A DNA stretch of 64,000 bases from Callorhinchus milii (taxonomy: Eukaryota). The DNA lies in contig NW_024704742.1 in NCBI RefSeq assembly GCF_018977255.1, positions 34,412,001-34,476,000 of the forward strand. Direction: 5' to 3'. The first letter of the stretch is position 1, and the number at the start of each line of letters is the position of its first letter. This document shows positions 12,309 to 32,773 of this stretch, piece by piece. The notes below the pieces were generated by a model. It saw only the letters and a list, made by a program, of their open reading frames with translations, was not told where the DNA came from and did not search any database. Made by a program: the position numbers and the translations under genes.

Positions 12309-12516
12309 ATGAATTGTGCGAAAGATCCTTTGAATTTGGACCAGTTTAGCAGCAGCAGCAGCAGCAGCAGCGGCGGCGGCGGTAATAAATTGGTCCGGGA
12401 TCAATCGGCTTCTTCTTCTGTCATGGCTTCTGGTTTGCAACCGCTGCGAACGAGTGAGCCCAAGCACCGGCTCGAGGTTCACACTTTATCGGACACCTCC
12501 AGCCCTGACACCGGAG
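12309..12516 (+). CDS. PITX2: PITX2 isoform c first coding exon
   Basis: MNCAKDPLNLD...MASGLQPLRTSEPKHRLEVHTLSDTSSPDTG matches Pitx2c MNCMK...KHRLEVHTISDTSSPE. Donor G|gtaagg at 12517, phase 1. Confidence 0.96.
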
Positions 12517-13305
12517 GTAAGGCCGTTCTCCCCCCCCCCCCACCACCTCCTCCTTTCTGCATTTATCAGCCTTTTTCGATGTTTATTGCACTCACGTCTC
12601 GGGCGTTGCGCCAATTCCCTATTTTATCGCATTGCTCCGTCGTCCCGTCCCCCAGAAATAAACGGGAAGTGCCTTTTTGCCATCGGCAATCGTGCAACGA
12701 CTTATCCCGAGTTGCCTCGAGGCGATGCCTCGGGATTCCGCACATCGAAGACTTTTGCATTGCTTCCGATTTCGAAATGTATTTAAGCGTTTTTAAATGT
12801 CAATCGACGAGTTACAACCATTGATATCAATGTCACCTGCGAAATGAATGCCTTGGGTGAATCCGGCCGCAATTTTCGGTTGCACGTCTCGGAAAGAATG
12901 TTTCGCGCAGTTCAATAAAAGCGACGAACTTTTTTAACATTAAAAATAACATGTGCAATGTGTGCGAACAAGTTGGGAAGTTCAGCAAAATGGTACAAAC
13001 GAGGTTCGCGTTTCCCTTTCGCTCGTCCTTGCGCAGCGCTGCACACACACACACGCACACGCACACATGCACAGGATCAGCAACAACAGACTGCTAACGA
13101 ATTAAAACGGTTTAGAAGTAAACAGATTTATTTGGAATTCATTTATTTATTTATTTATTTATTTAATCTTGGGTCGGTTACAATACCTATTTGTAAGACC
13201 CACAGAACTCCGGGGGGAAAAAAAACATATCTTCGTGCAATGGAATTTTGCAATCTTGCAGTTGTTTCTCGTTACTGGAGTTTTCCCTTTCAGGTGTGTG
13301 TTTAA

Positions 13306-13668
<363 letters not shown>

Positions 13669-13949
13669 TAAGACGGCACAATAATATATGTTACCAGGTT
13701 GTGTTTCCGCATTTACAATGAAAACTACCGTTGAGTGTTGTCCTTTGTATGGTCAGGTCCAAAATATTTGAAATCATCAGGATAAAAGGCAAACATATTT
13801 TTCAGGGACTTGTAAGGAATATGCAAACTCGTGCTTTTTCTTGCAACAGCATGCTGTTCTCACTGAGTGGAAGTGCAATCCCGATTTCACACTAAAGGTT
13901 ACAGTACTACTTGCTAAGTACAGTTTAACATTTGCTTGCCAATGCAGAA

Positions 13950-14290
13950 CGCCAGTTGTGTAAACAGCGCCTTGTCTCGGGCTATTGTGGTCTGTGTCTC
14001 AACTCACATCCCAATACACAAATGTCGTGGATTGGAGAAGCGGGAGATGTCTCTCAGCGCTGAATGTGGATTCGCCAAAGCTGTGAGAAGAGGAGATTTT
14101 TGCGTGTGGCTGACATGCTTCATTAGGATTCGCTTAGCGCCTCGTAAACCAACAACAGCTTTCCTCTTTTTTTTAAAAAAAAGTCGACTCACTTTGAAGT
14201 TAAAACGCAAACTGCATCTCGATCACTTGCGATTTACACTTCAATTCACAAAAATCGCAAATCGGCTACGGATCTTAACGAACAAGTGAA
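13950..14290. promoter_or_regulatory. Pitx2 asymmetric enhancer (ASE) candidate in the last intron
   Basis: FoxH1 motifs AATACACA 14013-14020, TGTGGATT 14065-14072 and near-match CGTGGATT 14026-14033. Several GTCT Smad cores. Nkx2-type CACTTG 14224-14229 and CAAGTG 14283-14288. Same intron as the known vertebrate ASE. Confidence 0.75.
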
Positions 14291-15478
14291 ATTACATTTG
14301 TGTGTGTGTGTGTGTATATGCGAGTCAAGCAAGTAGAGTAATGCGTGTTATCTGTAACTAATTAACTAGAAGTTGTTTGCATATAACGCACTGAAATGCA
14401 CATTTAGTTCTCGGTACACATTCTGGTAGTGTTGTTGCTTCACACAAGCTTGTGAGGTATATTTCAAGCAGCGCAATATACCTTTTCCATTGACCTTAAG
14501 TTTCTGAACGCATTAGTACATCATTCAACTGAAGGAGAATCGCATTTCACTCAGTGTAGGGTGTTATTAGTTTTCCGGTTTTCTCCTGCGGTATCTAAAT
14601 TATTAATCGGACATTGGGTCAAACCTTACTAACATTGATGCCAGATAACTCGTACAATGTGGGGGCTCGGAGCTTTGGTAGATATCAATCACAACGATCA
14701 CAAACACTCCTACTGGCATTCTCAAACTTTTAGCCCTGTTCTCTGATTTATTGAACCACCTGAAGGCATTTTTATTTAATTAAATGGTAGTATTCCTTCC
14801 ATTCGCTGCGTGGGTATTATCCGGAACGTATTATTTGACTTGCCTTTCACACGGCTATAAACAAAACCCAAAACAAATAGAACAAAATTGAATATGTCCT
14901 AACCAAATAATTGAATGCGACTGTGGACGCGCTTCGAATTTCCCTTTTGCTTCGGAATCGCAGTGTTTTTGAGAGCTGTCAGTACACTTCCAACATTACA
15001 TGACTGCTTCCTAACTATGAATCTTAAAAGAAATGTCAAGCGCTTCTCCGCATATCATGTGGAGGAGCGGCGTGTTAAAGGCATTGGTTTCTTGTGTTTA
15101 TTCTGAGCTGCACTCGTTGTTTTGAGCTGAAATATGCTATTGAAAATTAAACGTATGCCTTGTTTGGATGCATTCCTCTGTTTTCTTCTTAACCTCATCA
15201 TAGTTTTTTTTTCTCTTGTATTCATCCGTGGTAAGATATTTATATTTTATGTGGATATATATAATTTATATGTTGCGGTTCCCGTTTATGAAAAAAAACT
15301 ATACGGTCTCACCTTTGTTTGTTACCAAAACGATAGTTGTGTCTTTTCATGTGATATTAATATCACTGACATTCTGTGATTTAAATACGCAAGATGGTTT
15401 AGACTTGCGATGCCCACTGTTCATTCTGTTAAAAAAATAAAGGTTTTTCAAAACAAAATATTTCTATTCCCCCTGTAG

Positions 15479-16042
<564 letters not shown>

Positions 16043-16700
16043 GACATAAGATAAAACTCATCAGACTGATGGGCTCCAAGAAATAACTTAAAATATAATG
16101 GGCTCTACAGACAAAACCACTGAATCTGTATAGCTAAACACGACAGAATCGTCTTTCTAATTTAAGGAAAAAAAGTGCAAGTGTTATTTCCTCCCTTGAC
16201 ACCCTATTTACAAGAACTTTTCATCAGATAAAGGGACGTATGGCCGCAAAATGAAATATACTGATTATTTGACTGGATATTACCTTTAGTAACACTATAA
16301 GCTTGTTATTTTTTAAGTTCAGCGCTGTGACAATAAAGGAAATGTTTGACGGAAAGGATGTGTATATATCGAAATGTCAAAATTAATTTTATAAAAGCAA
16401 TTGTTAGTAATATCACGCCAGTGTTTTTGAAGTTACATTTAAAAAAATAAAAGCATGTCACGCGGAAGCTTGAAGGAATATTTCCGCTTAAAAGCGAGGG
16501 AATGTATATACTAACTGCAACACTTGTATGTTTCTAACAGTGTCTATTATTATTAATTATTATTATTATTAAAAGTCTGTGTGGATATCAGTTTTAAGAC
16601 TAGTACCTCGGTAGTAAGATGCAATGATGTTCCAAAAAATGTACAATTTATCCTGTGTATAAAATTTGGTACGGCATTACGAGTTTCTTTTTTTTCGTCA
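16043..16700 (+). other. PITX2: PITX2 3' UTR (3' end uncertain) with AATAAA at 16332-16337 and 16446-16451
   Basis: Follows the stop codon. AU-rich, with ATTTA motifs, TGTATATA elements and polyadenylation hexamers. Confidence 0.7.
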
Positions 16701-18237
16701 GAAGAAAAAAACGAAACAGTGTGTTTTCCTGGGTGTAGGCACTAGATCGCAAACCCATTTTGTCGAATAGCGCTGTTTCTTTTCTGCATTCAAGTCTTTA
16801 GTTGGTCTAACAAATAACTTCTTCATTGGTAGCATCCACAGAACCCCATTCTATCAGTGAAAGGCTCTCACAGAGTGTCACTAATTACTTATAGCGCGGA
16901 GTATTAACACTTCAAAACTGATAATATAGCAGTGACTTCCAAGAGGGAACACACACATATGCGTTCAACGGTAAACCAGAAACATGGCCACAATCTGTTC
17001 CAGAACACTCTTCAGATTTGTTTTACATATATTGCTGTACTATAAAATAAATCAATTCATTCCAACACGCCGTTGTATATAAACGAAAAGCAAACATAGA
17101 TTACAAGCTAATTATTGCAGTTTAGTTAAACACTGTATGGGTCATGATTGAGTAATGGTGAAAAGGCGAACACAAACAGGGTAGGATAAAACACCATCAT
17201 TCTCATAAGTATTGATCTGCGTTCAAGATGTTGAACATAAATTATATTAGATCAAGATTCGATGACATAATTTCTCTCTATTTCGAATAATTTTGCATTA
17301 GAATAGCACAGGTTCAAAGGTCGCTTTGCATCTTTCGATGACTTTATTAGGTTTATGTTACCTTATTAAAGGTCAGACAGTTTGTGTTTGGTTATTAATA
17401 ATGTTGATCTAGCATTCTCCCGTGTGAGGCCTGTTTGCACATTAATCATACAGGATTATGTCGTGTAGAAGTCCATAATGAGAGTGCAAATGAAGATAAA
17501 TTATACAGTAGTATAAAGTCACATGGCCTGACTGGAGGCTGGAACACGAAGCAAAACGGGACAATAAGCAAGATTTTATTTGTTAAATAAAGCACAACTG
17601 TTCACAACAGCAATGACACATTTCTTTTAAGTAGACTTTACTAACGTTACGCGAGAAACTGTTACGAAAAAGATAATGGCAAATGAAAGTTCCTTTTTTT
17701 TTCGCGAAAAAAAAATAAAGCTTTGTTTTAAAGTTTGCATTCAGACAGTAAACCTTTGTCCGGCCTTCGATAGGTAATTTTTTTTATATATGGTGCCACT
17801 TAAAACCAAGATCAAAGATGATTTCAGCGTTTTATGGAAGATTTTGCATTAACCTCCAAGAGCTCAGTGACATTAACTGGAGTAAAACAAAGGCACGATA
17901 GAGAGAGAGAAAGAGGGGGAAAAAAAGTAGCTTTCAGTTTTCCTCTGGCACTGTGGCAGACAGTTTTGTGGATTGGGAGTTGTTTGCTATGGAAAGCCCG
18001 AGGGGAGATTATGCAACACTTTTCAGTTCAAAAAAAAAGGAGTCAGCGGGTGTTTTATGAAGTGGCATCAAACAGACAGACAAGGCAGTTCGTTCCACAC
18101 TGCCTGGAGATCGAGTCGCCGAGCAAACGGCCGGATTGAACGTTTTGCATCTGTCTGAGAGAGCACCAGCCGCTTATTAATCATAAACAAAACTTAGGAG
18201 CCAGCAGAGCAAAATGGCAGTCAGTCAGCGGCCAGAG

Positions 18238-18710
18238 GAGAGTGAGGGAGGGAGGGAGGGAGTGAGTGAGTGAGGGAGTGAGTGAGGAAGGAAGGGAGTG
18301 AGTGAGTGAGTGAGTGAGGGAGGGAGTGAGTGAGTGAGGGAGTGAGGGAGTGAGTGAGGGAGTGAGTGAGTGAGTGAGTGAGTGAGGGAGGGAGGGAGTG
18401 AGTGAGTGAGGGAGGGAGTGAGTGAGTGAGGAAGTGAGTGAGTGAGTGAGGGAGGGAGGGAGGGAGGGAGTGAGTGAGGGAGGGAGTGAGTGAGTGAGGG
18501 AGGGAGTGAGTGAGTGAGGGAGTGAGTGAGTGAGGGAGTGAGTGAGTGAGGGAGTGAGTGAGTGAGGAAGGGAGTGAGGGAGGGAGTGAGGGAGTGAGTG
18601 AGTGAGTGAGTGAGGGTGGGAGTGAGTGAGTGAGTGAGTGAGTGAGTGAGGGAGTGAGTGAGTGAGGAAGGGAGTGAGTGAGTGAGTGAGTGAGTGAGTG
18701 AGGGAGGGGG
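18238..18710 (+). repeat. Compound (TGAG)n/(GGGA)n microsatellite
   Basis: About 470 bp of 4-nt units, essentially no C on the + strand. Confidence 0.97.
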
Positions 18711-19775
18711 CAGTGGGAGCCGCACTCTCGCCACCCAGTTCCCCGCACACTCAAGAGTGCTCCAGTGCTGCGAGGAACCAAAGGCGCGTTGAGTGCCAAA
18801 TGAGCAGTGTTTGGGGGCAAAGTGTCCGGTCTGACTGCTCCGCTGCGGCATCGGAGGGGTCTGTCTGAACTCAGCCCAAACCCACACGAATCCGATAGAG
18901 CCGCGAGAAGAAAAAAAAAAGCGCAGAAGAAGAGCCACTCGGTGTGGGGGGGGGAAAAAAAAAAAATCTATTTCTATCTTTTTTTCCCCCTTCGGCGCCA
19001 ATTCGCTTTGTGGGTCCCCATCCATCGCGCAAACGAATGCACGAGTCCGAGTGGGATTGAAGGTCGGTGTTGGGTAACTTTTTTTTTTTGCCCCCCTCTT
19101 AATTGTAATGTTGTGGATTTTAAACGGGTGGTTTGCGTTTCTCGACCCCGAGCGGTTCGAACTGTTCTCTTCTTTATTCTCCACCTTTATGTTAAATAAA
19201 AAGCGTCGCTTAATAACCGCTGCTCTTCTGCGAAGAAGATTTACGGACCGTGGCTAAAATATTTCAGGGAAGATATCACTGGATTCTTTTGTCTGCCCGC
19301 GACGAGGAATTCCAGTCCCCCCCTTCCTCCCCCCCAAAAAAAAAATTGCGCCCAATCGCTCCTTTTGAGAAGTGATCGCACAAAGTCTGCAATTCCGTAC
19401 ACAGCAACTTACCAAATTCCCACATTAAGCCCCAAAAAAAAAAATAAGTCAGCACAGCCGGATTCACCGCTGTTTCCAAGTCCCGCACCTCTTTCCGAAA
19501 CTGCGCGAACCATTACAGGTAAACATTACGAATGAACAACGGCTCCGAAAAGTCGAGATTTGTCCCGGGTTTAAAGCCCCTGTGCCGCCGCGGGGCACAG
19601 AGCTCTGATCCGGATGGGTTTTGAACGGAATGAATCCAGACATCGCCGCATCATCACTGTGTGGCAAGAACTGTGTGCGCTGTGTGCGCTGCGATCTCTG
19701 CGGCGACCCACGTATTTGACCGACTATTATGCAGCGGGTTATTTCCGCCATTCTGTTGAGCTGGAAGGGCCCCCT

Positions 19776-19992
19776 GAGGGAGGGAGGGAGGGAGAGAGGG
19801 AGGGAGGGAGGGAGGGAGGGAGAGAGTGAGTGAGTGAGTGAGGGAGGGAGGGAGGGAGGGAGGGAGGGAGGGAGTGCGTGCGTGCGTGAGTGAGTGAGTG
19901 AATGAGTGAGTGAGTGAGTGAGGGAGGGAGGAGTGAGGGAGTGAGTGAGTGAGTGAGTGAGGGAGGGAGTGAGCGAGGGAGTGAGTGAGTAG
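19776..19992 (+). repeat. Second compound (GGGA)n/(TGAG)n microsatellite
   Basis: Same units and strand as 18238-18710. Confidence 0.95.
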
Positions 19993-20140
19993 CGAGTGTC
20001 GCAAAAGGCAGTGTTTTTTTAAAAAAAGAGAGTTCCCCCCCCCTTTTCGGTGGTGAGTAAATTATCGAGGCTCGAAGGATGCTCTTCGCAAAAGGAGGCG
20101 ATCTCGGTGAGAACAAACAATGGGTGTCTGGGATCTGCTT

Positions 20141-20179
20141 CCCAATCCACATCCCCAATCCACATCCCCAATCCACATC
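20141..20179 (+). repeat. Perfect tandem repeat 3 x CCCAATCCACATC, each unit containing a FoxH1 site
   Basis: AATCCACA at 20144, 20157 and 20170 (13-bp period). Confidence 0.9.
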
Positions 20180-22675
20180 GAAGCGTTCAGTGCAATCTGC
20201 TGTGAAACACATGATCTGCTGACCAGTCCAGGCAGCGACTCGGAGAAGCTGGACCAAGAGGCTGAAACGCGGAGATCAATTGGCAGTAAGTCACCTTCGA
20301 GACAGTCTCTTTCTAGTCACTAAGAATCCAGTTCGATCCCACTGTGTTTTTTTTCGAGATGGGGAGAAACGTGAGTAAGCTCTTTTCACGGTTGTGTTGG
20401 AGAGTACAATTTTAAGTGCCGGTTGCTTTTAAGGATGTAAAAGAAACGTTTCATCTGTAGTCCCAGAAATTCAGTTAGGTTCTCCCTCCCTCCCTCCACA
20501 CACATACACACACCACACACATACACACACCAGACATTGAGCAGCTTGCTGGTTTCAGATCCATTTGTTTTCTGATCAGTGCATAGCAACAGCTTCTTTC
20601 TATAAATAAAAAAACAGAAAACGGTCGCAGGGTGCAGCAGCCCCGCTTCTCTCACAAGGCTGCATTTTCCTGGAAAAGAGAAACAGGAATGATGTGGGGG
20701 GTCGCTTATATTTGAGCACATATTTTGTAACCTTCCAGCGGCTGGGTCTCAGTTCCAACAATTATTCCTGACAACCCTTAAATGTGAATATGGGAACAAA
20801 GTGACTTCTTCAAATACAACAATCCCAGAGTCAGCTCTGCAGAGTCCCACAGTAACCAACTCCATTATACTTTCTAAACGATGCAAAGAGAAACAAGAGA
20901 AACACCAATATATTCGTGTCGAGGGGAATGATTGAATATTTTTACCAGAACCCGTGATTTTTTTTTAGTTCATTGCACGTGTACTTTCGATCAAATTGCG
21001 AGAAGAAATGATTAACGAGGAGAAGAAGTCCAGATTGCAGTCGGTAAAACAGGTCAATTTTGCAATTGGCTTCGGTTTACAGACAGTAAACCTCACGAAC
21101 CCCCCAAAAAAGGATTAGGGGCATTTGTGAACGTTATCAAATTAGGAGAATGGGATTCATGGGTTTATTTTAGACGTGGTTCGTGTAATGGCAAGAAGCG
21201 GGTTATGGGATAGTCACTCGTTCCAGTGTGAGATCTTAACCCGACCACCAGAAAATAAACATAAAAACAAAAAAAAACTCGCACTTTATTACCAACTCCC
21301 CCCCCCTCCCCCTCCCCCCCCCACACACACACACACGATGCACACAAGTATTGTAAGCGAAATGATTCACAAGCGATCACAAACAATTTGAAATGTGGGG
21401 GGAAATCCTGGATGAGTTCGATGATGATGCAAGGATTACTGTTATTGGCGGCGAAAGTTCATTCATTTCTCGGCTTGAATCTGATAAGCTGCACAATAAA
21501 CCCAATATTGTCCAATTGTTAGTACAGTTCAGAAATCCTGGCATATTTCTCTACGAACGCGGAAGCCTTCAGCACACAGATGCTCCTCGAGCAGTCGCTC
21601 ACCAGTCTGTTTGAGAAAGCATATTTTGCTTAACTTCTTGTGAACCATAGTGAGAAAAAAAGAAGGCTTTGTGTGAATCATTTCGCTTACGACGGATGTT
21701 GCAGTGCAGTTTTAACAACAACCAAAAAAAAAAAGCACTCGAGGCGCCGGTTTATTCAACTGCACGCACAGAAAAAAATGTGTTTTTTTTTGTTTCTGGA
21801 AGAGAATCTAAATGAAAGCATTTGAAGAGTGGGAACCAAAAAAAAACCATCCGGGGATTGGTACGATTGGTTTGAAAGAGCAATTGCACAGGGCCGAGGG
21901 ACGATTGCTTTTATATGGAGGAGTTGCAGCTACAGCACGTGTGGCGATGCCTGAGGACTGGGGTACGTGAAATTTCATTTCAGTAGCTTTCATATTCAAT
22001 TTCGTGAAAAAAAACGGCGGCATTGGTGGTTGGATGTCAGCACATACACACACACACACTCTCTCTCTCTCTCTCTCTCCTCCTGCCACGGTGACCTTTA
22101 AATCTCTTGCTTATTGACTCGTTTCCTCACAATTTAAAGCGAAGGGTTAAAGGCTGCAGTTTGCTAATTAACATTGACCTGGATCACAACAGACCCCTTG
22201 GGTTTCCCCGACGAGACCAAACTAGATAGGAACACAGCGCTATTATCGAATGCATCGAATGCATTTATTTTTTATATATATCTCTCTCTATATATATATA
22301 CATAGACATGGTGCAAGCATATGCTTCCACGTTGTTTAGAAGAAGAATGAAGAAAAAGAAACGAATGCTCTGCCTTTTGTTGTCTCTCTTTTGTTAAGAC
22401 ATCTGTGTGTTTGCATTGCAGGGTCGCGTCAGTCAAAAGGCGGACCGCTATATAAAACCTATGGATGCAGTCTATATATCTCCGGGTGCTTTAAAGAGAA
22501 ATATAAGATCACGAGCAACCCTTGTAAGGTTTACGCGAATGACACAGTAACATAAATATTTACATAGTCGATGCCTGTGGCGATATTTTTTTAAGCAACT
22601 TTTTTTTTTGGTGGTGGTGGTGGAGGGGGGGGGTTGCAAAATTCTCTGGAGTATGGATTTCACTCGCGTGCTGAA

Positions 22676-22708
<33 letters not shown>

Positions 22709-23044
22709 CTTCTCTCCCTCTTTTCTCTCTTTGAAATGCAACCCGCCCGGCACTGCTCGAGTTTTGCAAATGACTTGTAAAGATGGGACTGTAATTCAGC
22801 CTGCACGGATTAATAATAATGTTTGTTTTTTTAAAAATAAAAGACTTCGCGACTAGTTTTGCTTGGGATCGAAGGATATTATTCCTGCGCCCGGTTGGAG
22901 TACAGCATCAAAACAGTATGTCCTCACCACCCCTGGTTTGATGAGCTTTGGCTGCTCTGTTTAACAGCGGATCGGATTTGCGATCGAAACAATTGATATC
23001 TTTAACTTTTGAAGTGAAACATCAATACAGGTCGCATCCAATGC

Positions 23045-23386
23045 GTGTGTGTGTGTGTGTCAGTGTGTGTGTGTGTGTCAGTGTGTGTGTGTGTCAATGT
23101 GTGTGTGTGTGTGTCAGTGTGTGTATGTGTGTGTGTGTCTGTGTGTCAGTGTGTGTGTGTGTCAGTGTGTGTGTGTGTGTCAGTGTGTGTCTGTGTGTGT
23201 GTGTCAGTGTGTGTCTGTGTGTGTGTGTCAGTGTGTGTGTCAGTGTGTGTGTGTGTGTGTGTGTGTGTCAGTGTGTGTGTGTGTGTCTGTGTGTGTCAGT
23301 GTGTGTGTGTGTGTGTCAGTGTGTGTGTGTGTGTCTGTGTCTGTGTGTGTCAGTGTCTGTGTGTGTCAGTGTGTGTGTGTGTGTGA
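23045..23386 (+). repeat. Interrupted (GT)n microsatellite with CA/CT interruptions
   Basis: About 340 bp of (GT)n with 15 TGTCA interruptions counted by eye. Confidence 0.97.
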
Positions 23387-25399
23387 CAGAGTGAGAGAAA
23401 AATACACGTTACAAGTTACATTACAGAAGTTGTTATAAAACAGTGCCACGTAAACGAGGAATGATTTTTTTGGGGGTGGGGATGGGGTATGTGTTTTAAA
23501 TGTTTGCCCGATTTATCGTAACGCTGTCACTGAATGTAGCAGTCTATTTTGTGTATGACCCCCCCCCCACCACCACCACCCTTGGTCAGGATTGCTACCA
23601 GATTTAACCACACAATCATTTGGGCAGACATTGACATTTTTTTTCCCTCTCTCTTTCCACCATCCCCTCCTCCCCCCCAAAAGTAATAATAATGCAACTT
23701 ACTGTTTATTAGTGTTAACGTGGCGGGGCGGGGGGGGGGAGGGGGGGTAGGGGGGGGAGAAGGCAGAGTTATAGTGCAAAACTGACAAGTGCTGCCCCTG
23801 CCTTTGAATATCAATCACAGCGTTTTTTTTTAAAAAAAGGGAAAGAAATAGGGAGTCAGGTTTCAGCGACTGTGCTGCAGGTCACCAAACCCTGAGAGCT
23901 CGCGTGTCCCCCGCAACCAGTTGTTGCTGATCATTCCGCGTTCCTGTTTTACTGGTGATTTTTTTTCCATTTGCACCGGATTTATTTTTGTTGCTCAATT
24001 GGCACGTGAAACAAACTACCCCCACCCCACCCCACCCCACCCCCCCCACCATCCTCACCCCCCACCACCCCCACCCCATCTCGTCACAACACAGCAGTTG
24101 CAGCCACTGCATTATTTATAATTCACGCTGGTTGCAATTCGTGACCCCGGTCGAAAACACGCGGACAACGCACACGCACACGCACAGGCGAACACAACTC
24201 ACTGGAGTCATCGAAACGAATCGACCGACGTAAGTTGCAACACGAGGAGGAGGAGGAGGAGGGAATAGTTGGGGAGTTGCTGCGATTGCTCTTTTGGGTT
24301 CCACGACTCCGCTTCACGCCCTCTCGGAGACCCCCGTCAAAAGGCGCTCAGTGTCCCGCTCTGATCCGGGGGTTGGGATGGGTGGAGACGCAGTAGATGC
24401 GGGCGATCCCTTCCTGCGTTTCCACAGCTGATGACAGGTAACGGAGCTGAGTCGGGAGAGAGCGCCGAGCAGCGAGTATGTGAAATAAATCACACCAACT
24501 GCACCGCCGGGTGTTGCATTGCATTGCAAGTTGCAATGCCCCGAGTGGGTCGATCGACAGCTATTTTCTCTCTTTTTAAAAAAAAAGCCCCAAATAACTC
24601 ATGATTTTTAACAGTAATACCCCCCACCCCACCCCCCCCCCCCCATCACCCCACCTTATCCCCACAGCAGTGCACTGCATACAATTCAGGCGTCTTTGTG
24701 TAATTGACTCATTCATGAATCACTGGCGCCACTCCACCAAACCAGTCAGTTGTTTATGCAATATTTTAAAAGCGTGTTCATACTCAAGCAACCCCTTATA
24801 TATAACCTAAAACAACGTTATACAAGAAGACCCAATCCTTCTGCTCTGAGGAGGGAGGTGGGGGGGGGAGGCACAATAAAAAGAACTGCTGATGCAAGTC
24901 ACCGTGTGCAGTGTCTCACGCAAAATAGCTCGTACAGTTAGCGGAATCCAATATAATTGAAACTCTTTCAGTTCAACTGGAAGTTAGCCCAAGCTGCTGA
25001 GCTGATCATTTCTGTATCTGCAGCCTTCCTTATTCTTCTCGTACTGTCGTTTTCGCAGTACATAACTTATATTCGCCTGCAAACAGACTAGTCACTACAT
25101 TTTACAGCAAATCGTTTGACGCACGTTGACGTGTTTTAGATGACTTGATCAAGGGCTGTAGCAAATGGGAGAATTGTTATGATGTATCTGAAGTTGTTTG
25201 CCCCCCCCCCCCCCCCCCCCCCCCTCTGGCATACAAGAGCAAATGTTATATTCTCTGATGAGATTTTTGTGAGCGATAGCACCAATAACTTGTAGAAACA
25301 TCATTTTGTGCTTTGAGTCGCCTTCCCGATGTGAAAGGAGCTATATAAATAAATGCAAGTTGTATTGTATTTTATTTTATCTGGTGGACATTAACTTTG

Positions 25400-25912
25400 T
25401 ATCTCCTCCCTGGTTTCCCCAGCTCCACTTGTCAAAAAATCCAGCTCATTGGGAACTCTGCTGCCTACATACTGACCCGGACTAAACTCTATACCCCTAT
25501 CTCACCAATTCCGGCCAGGATCCACGGGCTTCCCATCACCGAACGGATCGCCTTCAAGATCCTCACACTTGTGTCCAAATCCCTTCAGTCCCTGGCACCT
25601 CCCTACTTCTCCTCACTCCCAATCCACTACCTGGAGCCTCTGCTGGACTGGCACCTGCCTCCTGCTTGTCCTTCATGCCCTCCGCTCCACCATTAGAGGT
25701 TGCGCATTGAGCCACTACACCCCAAAACTCTGGAACACTCTCCCTCAATCCCCCCGCCTTGCCCCCACCCCCTCTCTCCCCGTTTTCAAGTCCTGCCTGA
25801 AAACCTTCCTTTTCGACCTTGCTTACAGTCACCTCCCCCCCCACCCCACCTGGCTCAGAGTCAGGCTCCGCCACTGTTAGACGCCACTATGCGTAGAGGG
25901 TGCTATATGTTC
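25400..25912 (+). mobile_element. L2-clade LINE 3' fragment, degenerate
   Basis: IQLIGNSAAYILTRTK...HGLPITERIAFKILTL...LAPPY, then PKLWNTLP...FKSCLKTFLF. Confidence 0.88.
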
Positions 25913-26639
25913 CTTGGAATGAATAAACACATAATCCACCTCTATCAAAAACCACTAACTACTGTTGAAATATCAACACAGCAGACAAAGTACAATAGTT
26001 AATCAATATGAGATAACATTGTTTAAATATTAATACCAATTGTCAAATTAGCATTTGATGAATACGATAACTGGAAAGTAAGAGTAAAACAGGGATAGTA
26101 ATGCTTCTCAGAACTGTGAGCAGTAACTCCCTAATATACATGGAAATATTGTTTATCTTGTATGTGCCTTTCTACTATTACTTCCGATAGACATGTTACA
26201 TTTCTGAATGTAGCAGATATCTTAGTGATATGGAGGGTTATAGATAGACAGTGCTCTAATGATCCTTCCCTAATAACAGATACGGGGTTGTATCAAAATG
26301 TTCTTCTAAGTATTCAGTGGTGAGTGGGGGATGGGGAGGTAGAATGTGTGAGCGTGTGTGTAGTGTAGCACATGCTGGTTCTTGTAGTTTGTGTGCGGTG
26401 GGCCCACTGCTGTAGACGGGCAGCAGACTGGTTTCAGGGAGCGCCAGGAGAATGACCAGTCAGACAGCTTGGTGCTCTCTCCCTCCCTCGTCATCACCCC
26501 CCACACACTGGCTGGTTTGAGAAGGGGGAAGTGATGCGGATTACAAAAAGTCCCACTGTGGCCACCAGTAAATGTCAGTGGACATTTGAGGCCACCAAAA
26601 ATTTTTATTTGAGAATCGCTTGTCCAGGTTGACACTTGG

Positions 26640-31937: not shown

Positions 31938-32302
31938 AATAATAATAACAATCCTTGCATTTGATATAGCACTCTTCATGTCTTCTAGACATCTCGAAAC
32001 ACTTCACAGAATATACTGTAAAGTGAATTGACTGTATATTTGTGGGTAAAATGCGACAGCCAATTGTGCAAAGCAATGTTCCACAAACAGTTGTGGATTG
32101 AGTGACCACATTTTTTTTAAGGATTATTATTCCTGGAAAAGCAATCCGCCAATCAACCAACAACAGGATTCCTACTTACTGCTAGGTAAACAGAGGCATG
32201 TGGAGTAAGGAAACTTGCCCAACATTTCGCCCTGCTGGGAATAGAACTCAGATTTCTCGCTTGCGAGGCGAGTGCTCTAGCCACTGAGCTACAGGACTCC
32301 AC
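31938..32302 (-). mobile_element. Full-length tRNA-derived SINE
   Basis: Minus strand starts GTGGAGTCCTGTAGCTCAGTGG (A box), has a B-box-like segment, ends with the shared tail. Confidence 0.92.
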
Positions 32303-32426: not shown

Positions 32427-32773
32427 GTGTAGCTCAGTGATTCGAGCACTTGCCTCTCAAACAAGAGACCTAGGTTCGATTCCCGGGCAGGCTGAAATGC
32501 TGGGCACGTTTCCTTACGCCACATGCTTCTGTTTACGAAGCCGTAAGTAGGAACCTTTTCCGGGGGTAATAATTCCTTCAAAAAAAATAATAATAATAAA
32601 TTTGTCTCTCAATCCACGACTGTTTGTGACACACTGCTGTGCACAATTGGCTGCTGCGTTTTGCCTACAAAATATACAGTTAATTCACTTTACAGTATAT
32701 TCTGTGAAGCGCTTTGAGACGTCTTGAAGACGTGATAAGGCGCTATGTCAAACGCAAGCATCATTACTATTAT
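32427..32773 (+). mobile_element. tRNA-derived SINE, near full length, head-to-head with 31938-32302
   Basis: TGTAGCTCAGTG...GGTTCGATTCCC, tail stem-loop and ATT repeats. Confidence 0.9.

Follow-up and report, generated by a model that had tools for sequence, protein, structure and literature searches.

A 13-bp sequence carrying an optimal FoxH1 site is repeated three times exactly, in tandem, downstream of Pitx2 in a 64,000-nt stretch of the Callorhinchus milii genome (assembly GCF_018977255.1, contig NW_024704742.1, positions 34,412,001 to 34,476,000 of the forward strand), hereafter called the window, and this array lies within an exon of a spliced RNA that runs on the Pitx2 strand. The explanation we prefer, with a probability of roughly 0.45 and thus a little short of even odds, is that a FoxH1 site was tripled by slippage in the 5' region of a probably Nodal-responsive RNA, which occupies the position of the human long non-coding RNA (lncRNA) PANCR, and that FoxH1/Smad2 would bind the surrounding flank. 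The initial annotation, made from the letters alone, had treated the stretch as intergenic and proposed a Nodal-response element created by repeat expansion. Splice joints seen in two studies contradict the first of these points, while, against the second, the mouse element that occupies this position and the two unexpanded FoxH1 sites nearby suggest that something older was amplified or that the array arose by chance.

The array spans 20141-20179 on the plus strand (units 20141-20153, 20154-20166, and 20167-20179), and each unit contains one AATCCACA, at 20144, 20157, and 20170, whose minus-strand reading is the FoxH1 consensus TGTGGATT followed by G. The three exact copies and all of their coordinates are thereby confirmed, as is the description of the sites as optimal, with the favoured outer G present just beyond the core at all three. 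According to the available text of PMC9701222, FoxH1 contacts span positions 2-13 around the core, with G or C favoured at position 13; the 13-bp period would keep the 12-bp footprints from overlapping. Predicted FoxH1 binding at the array is therefore plausible from the footprint spacing together with the G at position 13. The gaps among the sites measure 5, 5, and 18 bp. Two or more consensus sites (AATMMACA), one of the features by which an asymmetric enhancer (ASE) is recognised, are present in the array, which holds three perfect ones.

The internal structure of the array indicates how it may have arisen. Self-similarity reaches 21 of 33 matches at a lag of 6 and 19 of 32 at a lag of 7, and the FoxH1 motif straddles the junction of two diverged 6/7-base subunits within the 13-mer, which fits an origin by slippage in a repeat-prone locus; the locus is indeed highly repeat-prone, with 122 TRF rows in the window. 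Since the copies are still identical, the duplication is either young or has been homogenised. Among the seven exact complex tandem repeats of the window (period 8-40), the array is the only one with at least three copies. When random 13-mers of the window are tandemised, AATCCACA appears at a frequency of 0.0012 and the looser AATMMACA at 0.0055, so that coincidence is uncommon, yet the finding was chosen post hoc from many windows; these chance nulls, like those below, were computed within the 64 kb. Perfect FoxH1 sites number 11 in the window (nine with the triple counted once), compared with 3.9 +/- 2.1 in shuffles.

Copy number and transcription were assessed over 20000-22660 in four of 24 listed sequencing runs, all 24 of which are filed under one organism label, with a search that finds near-identical sequence only. 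Two of the four large P1 runs were chosen for their lowest word share, a choice biased toward variants, together with two RNA-type runs; X3 and X4 are DNA-like, while X7 (study P3) and X8 (study P4) are RNA-type. The check on copy number across individuals that had been proposed yields three unaltered units in both runs that bridge the array (X3 and X8, with at least 31 letters on each side), and contigs that start inside or after it (X4 from 20160, X7 from 20209) give no copy count. Relative to the window, X3 carries three listed substitutions and, further along, a 10-nt insertion, and therefore represents another haplotype; X8 may or may not represent the assembled animal. The triple is no assembly artefact, as judged from the two bridging runs. 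The 10-nt insertion, at 20734 relative to the window, occurs in both X3 and X4, and other differences between runs and window are found at 20787, 20830, 21116, 21837, and 22006.

Splicing around the array is directly observed. Position 20285 is joined to 21803 in both RNA-type runs, which come from two studies, and in neither of the DNA-like runs, whose contigs continue unspliced to 20472. The first seen exon (20108-20285, plus strand), recovered in X7 and X8 contigs, contains the repeat and ends at a used GTAAGT donor; the X8 contig matches it without difference, repeat included. It is followed by a GT..AG intron of 1517 nt (20286-21802) and by a second seen exon (21803-21962) whose boundaries were checked on the sequence. 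In X8 only, 21962 is further joined to 22422, skipping a GT..AG intron of 459 nt (21963-22421) and giving a third seen exon at 22422-22503, whose start is certain. The three seen exons total 420 nt, all on the plus strand, and the GT..AG sense of the joints places the RNA on the strand of Pitx2. Neither 20108 nor 22503 was accepted as a transcript end, since DNA contigs stop at 20102 and 22503 as well: 20108 marks a contig stop only, and 22503 is where contigs stop in both X8 and the DNA run X3. A joint of 20031 to 21713 in X4 was likewise rejected as a splice, being a repeat match with 20-letter sides and GT..TT borders. X7 also has a contig inside the first intron (21081-21280) and thus includes unspliced RNA or DNA. 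Donor-like sites unused in these data occur at 20053 (GTGAGT), which could mark an alternative upstream exon, and at 22524 (GTAAGG), which could mark the end of the third exon. The first intron contains a perfect 19-bp inverted repeat, with arms at 21353-21371 and 21672-21690, 300 nt apart.

The RNA is apparently best read as an lncRNA, judging from its coding and folding properties. A spliced open reading frame (ORF1; 20120-21825, plus strand) runs for 62 codons from a start in strong context, passes through the repeat, and stops 137 nt before the next junction, and a second, ORF2, begins at 21812 and has at most 94 codons in the spliced RNA. No Pfam match was obtained for the single-exon parts of either ORF. 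A search of proteins 30-97 residues long gave no homologue candidate for ORF1, and for ORF2 the exon-2 part matched only two proteins, P0121 and P0122, which were rejected as long tandem-repeat proteins. Rfam returned 11 matches over 16000-26000, all far under gathering scores and in low-complexity sequence, and folding of the repeat-bearing exon is no better than that of shuffles (z=+1.43).

In position and structure this RNA resembles human PANCR. The available text of the review PMC6616656 describes PANCR (RP11-380D23.2) as transcribed from the same strand as PITX2, at the distal end of that gene, as co-expressed with PITX2 and, in adults, confined to left atrium and eye, as human-specific, and as reportedly required for PITX2c expression. 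The accessible part of PMC7553719 places its first exon at most 4.5 kb downstream of PITX2, and that of PMC13025873 assigns it start sites of its own by cap analysis of gene expression (CAGE). The Callorhinchus RNA likewise lies on the Pitx2 strand with its 5' part a few kilobases from the 3' end of the gene, the first seen exon being 3.1-3.7 kb past polyA-like signals at 17046 and 16446, and it is spliced, longer than 200 nt, and devoid of a conserved ORF, in that no credible homologues were found.

A Nodal-responsive site 3' of Pitx2 has already been published in mouse, although the initial annotation knew of no described equivalent. In mouse embryonic stem cells, a second graded pSmad2 site "in the 3' region" of Pitx2 is reported in the available text of PMC3121749, and in mouse P19 cells two of five Pitx2 peaks were called at 1 h of Activin (PMC5305219 supplement). 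The summits of these peaks, 129,217,439 and 129,222,651, are 5212 bp apart, and the second peak (chr3:129,222,436-129,222,934, mm10; Table S1 of PMC5305219) has 9 normalised reads with inhibitor, 63 after 1 h of Activin, and 213 after 8 h. With the direction taken from the motif order in Table S4 of PMC2627943, we infer that the first and strongest peak is the ASE and that the second is found 5.2 kb away on its 3' side. The FoxH1 sites of the Callorhinchus flank lie 3.9, 5.1, and 6.1 kb 3' of its own ASE. The 3' direction of the second mouse peak also depends on where the mouse Pitx2 gene ends. A second Nodal-response element 3' of Pitx2, as the initial annotation had suggested, thus gains support from a mouse site at a similar distance; its description as newly founded does not.

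The two single perfect FoxH1 sites of the flank add to this picture. The site at 17967 (17959-17974, minus strand, including a Smad core 9 bp away) has the favoured G and is the best FoxH1 and Smad composite in the flank, and the site at 19112-19119 (minus strand) falls in a CpG-rich kilobase, a candidate promoter region in which CpG observed/expected is 1.15 at 19001-19500. This kilobase, the candidate promoter of the spliced RNA, is flanked by GAGT/GAGG tetranucleotide arrays at 18240-18706 and 19775-19998. Between 1 and 24.5 kb, CpG observed/expected ranges mostly from 0.5 to 1.3, whereas past 26 kb it is 0.15-0.51. The sharp fall past about 25 kb marks the edge of a large CpG-rich domain covering Pitx2 and the downstream RNA. 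On the preferred explanation, FoxH1/Smad2 in Nodal-receiving embryonic cells would bind the open CpG-rich 3' flank at 17967, at 19112, and at the triple, and this binding would help to turn on the downstream RNA along with Pitx2c and may give Pitx2c a secondary input. The intronic ASE would stay the main left-side switch, and the tripling would lift occupancy of a pre-existing site without founding a new enhancer. The RNA may be expressed on the left side and may share descent with PANCR and the second mouse peak.

That ASE was identified in the last intron of Pitx2 at 14013-14072, where AATACACA (14013) and TGTGGATT (14065) stand 44 bp apart with a degenerate third site between them, accompanied by Smad cores. 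Table S4 of PMC2627943 gives the mouse ASE the same two FoxH1 sites in the same order and orientation, and four Smad cores lie within 50 bp of the first Callorhinchus site, a density reached at 0.9% of positions. The earlier view that the array has better sites than an ASE weakened by one degenerate site is thus not supported, as the ASE has two full consensus sites and the degenerate one is a third. By comparison with the mouse table and with a Pitx2-like locus (L001, below), the intronic ASE is intact and conserved. The search rule in the available part of PMC2627943, a heuristic, requires a FoxH1 pair 30-200 bp apart, and three pairs in the window conform to it, including the intronic 14013/14065. 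Around the array, Smad cores do occur at 20126, 20300, and 20305, as first noted, but they are not enriched over background density: 13% of 190-bp windows contain three or more. The triple should accordingly not be filed as an ASE, as its spacing and Smad content differ from those of one, but it may act like a FoxH1 response element. The Pitx2 ASE carries an Nkx2-5 site for maintenance; in the flank, a putative Nkx2-type 7-mer, too short to be told from chance, occurs at 17797 and again at 20413, some 235 bp past the array.

Several observations weigh against the preferred explanation. The triple has a single Smad core within 50 bp, a distance at which 47% of sampled window positions also have one, and the gaps of the array (5 and 18 bp) fall outside the 30-200 bp pairing rule. 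Five perfect FoxH1 sites in 2.2 kb were claimed for the 3' flank, and their coordinates, including 17967 and 19112, are correct; their clustering, however, is weak, as the five represent three events (scan P=0.21: when nine sites are placed at random, 21% of trials put three of them into 2185 bp), and the cluster in the 3' flank has P=0.028 for a fixed flank of 5 kb and 0.15 for one of 10 kb. Perfect FoxH1 sites are also yielded by a common dispersed repeat (one of nine copies). Active CpG-rich domains, moreover, tend to yield transcripts of this kind. The match to mouse and human is one of position, without sequence alignment, and equates the strongest mouse peak with the ASE only by inference; in addition, the available text of PMC6616656 gives no mouse homologue of PANCR, which argues against continuous descent.

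Much of this evidence would also fit a neutral passenger, that is, a repeat born of slippage that spells the FoxH1 motif by chance and has no regulatory effect, lying in a non-coding exon under weak constraint, in an RNA driven by the Pitx2 domain with its ASE and CpG-rich chromatin. We regard this as a serious possibility, though short of probable: the repeat-prone locus with its 122 TRF rows, the position of the motif across the junction of diverged 6/7-base subunits, the background level of Smad cores, the weakness of the site cluster once collapsed, and the post hoc selection of the finding all accord with it, whereas the motif arises in only 0.1-0.5% of tandemised 13-mers, the array is the sole complex exact triple in 64 kb and sits where mouse has its SMAD2 peak, and its copy number is constant in both bridging runs. 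A lineage-specific shadow left-right enhancer of Pitx2, newly made by expansion and backing up the ASE, appears improbable. Its sites are optimal, its exonic location is compatible with enhancer activity, FoxH1 sites are reported to suffice for starting asymmetric expression (available text of the review PMC5715725, which also calls the ASE essential and sufficient), and local duplication is known to make neighbouring binding sites (PMC3188502, in the part available); yet the ASE is intact and conserved and leaves no weakness to cover, the Nodal-responsive mouse site at the same position makes newness doubtful, and the spacing and Smad content of the array are poorer than those of the ASE.

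The RNA itself admits two further readings. The exons could belong to Pitx2 transcripts that are extended on the 3' side by read-through and alternative splicing, with the repeat acting, if at all, at the RNA level; the shared strand, the gap of 3-4 kb, and the fact that the first seen exon is limited on its 5' side by a contig stop speak for this, but the Pitx2 stop is followed by three polyA-like signals, CAGE gives the human counterpart separate start sites in the accessible part of PMC13025873, and the fold of the repeat-bearing exon does not surpass that of shuffles, so that we consider such an extension very improbable. Still more remote is a micropeptide of 62 or 94 residues in which three 13-bp units were kept for their fit to the frame: the start context of ORF1 is strong and 39 nt make whole codons, but neither a homologue nor a Pfam match was found, and one or two units give frames that stop within about 15 codons, so that the frame of ORF1 depends on the expansion. 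By the distance rule of nonsense-mediated decay, moreover, a stop 137 nt upstream of a junction presents the pattern of a decay target. A bolder reading would place 3' of Pitx2 an ancient jawed-vertebrate module, a left-sided lncRNA that carries at its 5' end a second Nodal/FoxH1-Smad2 element, and would have it survive as human PANCR, the mouse SMAD2 element, and the Callorhinchus RNA, in which triplication tuned Nodal sensitivity; we hold this to be unlikely. If it were true, PANCR would date back about 450 million years instead of being confined to humans, and the repeat would represent a natural dose series.

Six loci were retrieved for comparison, of which three were not Pitx-like (27-29% identity) and were set aside. 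L001 is a Pitx2-like gene on a metagenome contig with 93% protein identity, whose sequence ends about 400 bp past the match; its last intron carries a facing FoxH1 pair 36 bp apart (402-453), far nearer the last exon than in the window, and the ASE regions of the two align poorly beyond the first site. L002 (78%) looks like a paralogue, and L003 is cut inside an exon, with no AATMCACA in its 1.6 kb upstream. None of the six loci gave an orthologous 3' flank, and blastn found no 3' flank homology. In openly accessible papers, no report of a Pitx2-adjacent RNA or of this repeat in cartilaginous fish was found, although automated annotation may list the RNA, and the available parts of PMC5342781, PMC6468844, PMC13043103, PMC9634164, and bioRxiv 2022.09.20.508562 and 2025.09.21.677640 contain no direct evidence.

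The upstream gene is Pitx2, as had been recognised, with a last exon up to 97% identical to PITX2 entries compared with 65-79% for PITX1- and PITX3-named ones. The Pitx2c coding span covers 12309-16042 on the plus strand, with the start at 12309, the homeobox exon at 13375-13578, the last exon at 15479-16042, and polyA-like signals at 16332, 16446, and 17046. A protein search with the first exon of Pitx2c returned two matches only, both from sharks. An AGC/GGC triplet repeat at 12348-12383 encodes a run of serine and glycine in the Pitx2c N-terminus. Farther downstream, a dispersed repeat occurs at 32087-32099, with copies at 32611, 36985, 41766, 42766, 43195, 54981, 57923, and 61095; we presume it to be a short interspersed nuclear element (SINE)-like sequence. 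Among the nine copies matched by one pattern, CGTGGATT is present in five and TGTGGATT in one, and a single C-to-T change at the CpG of CGTGGATT gives a perfect FoxH1 site, as at 32092. FoxH1 sites born of repeats may be very numerous in this genome.

Laterality defects and the strongest locus for atrial fibrillation both trace to PITX2 dosage. An RNA at the PANCR position together with FoxH1 sites in this fish opens two questions, namely whether the 3' element goes back to a common ancestor and what it drives, which could be the lncRNA, Pitx2c, or the two together. The triple offers a clean series of 0, 1, 2, and 3 copies for studying the spacing of FoxH1 sites; should it be neutral, both the repeat and the lncRNA exon that contains it are ordinary. 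What is new is a positionally matched lncRNA beside a developmental gene together with sites multiplied by local duplication, and both kinds are already known. Regulatory elements tuned by repeat number are known as well.

Among known systems, the ASEs of Pitx2, Nodal, and Lefty share with the array several nearby FoxH1 consensus sites at a Nodal target gene. The units of the triple, however, are identical and its gaps measure 5 and 18 bp, whereas the pairs published for these ASEs lie 30-200 bp from each other, have independent sequences, and are conserved among vertebrates. Closer in origin are the duplication-born sites described in the available text of PMC3188502, in which local sequence duplication is a source of neighbouring binding sites, lying within 50 bp of each other and of single origin, as here. 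Playrr, in the accessible part of bioRxiv 10.1101/2022.09.20.508562, is also an lncRNA of the Pitx2 locus, but it is right-sided and about 968 kb upstream in mouse, and is not this RNA. The mouse 3' SMAD2 site corresponds in distance, at about 5.2 kb from the strongest Pitx2 peak compared with 3.9-6.1 kb from the ASE here; it is Activin/Nodal-induced and bound by experiment, whereas the fish sites are predicted only, and the available text on mouse mentions neither a tandem repeat nor left-sided activity of this site in vivo. PANCR, finally, shares with the Callorhinchus RNA the Pitx2 strand, a 5' part within about 4.5 kb of the 3' end of the gene, more than one exon, and the lack of a convincing protein; it differs in being called human-specific, without a mouse homologue, and the fish RNA is likened to it by position and structure only.

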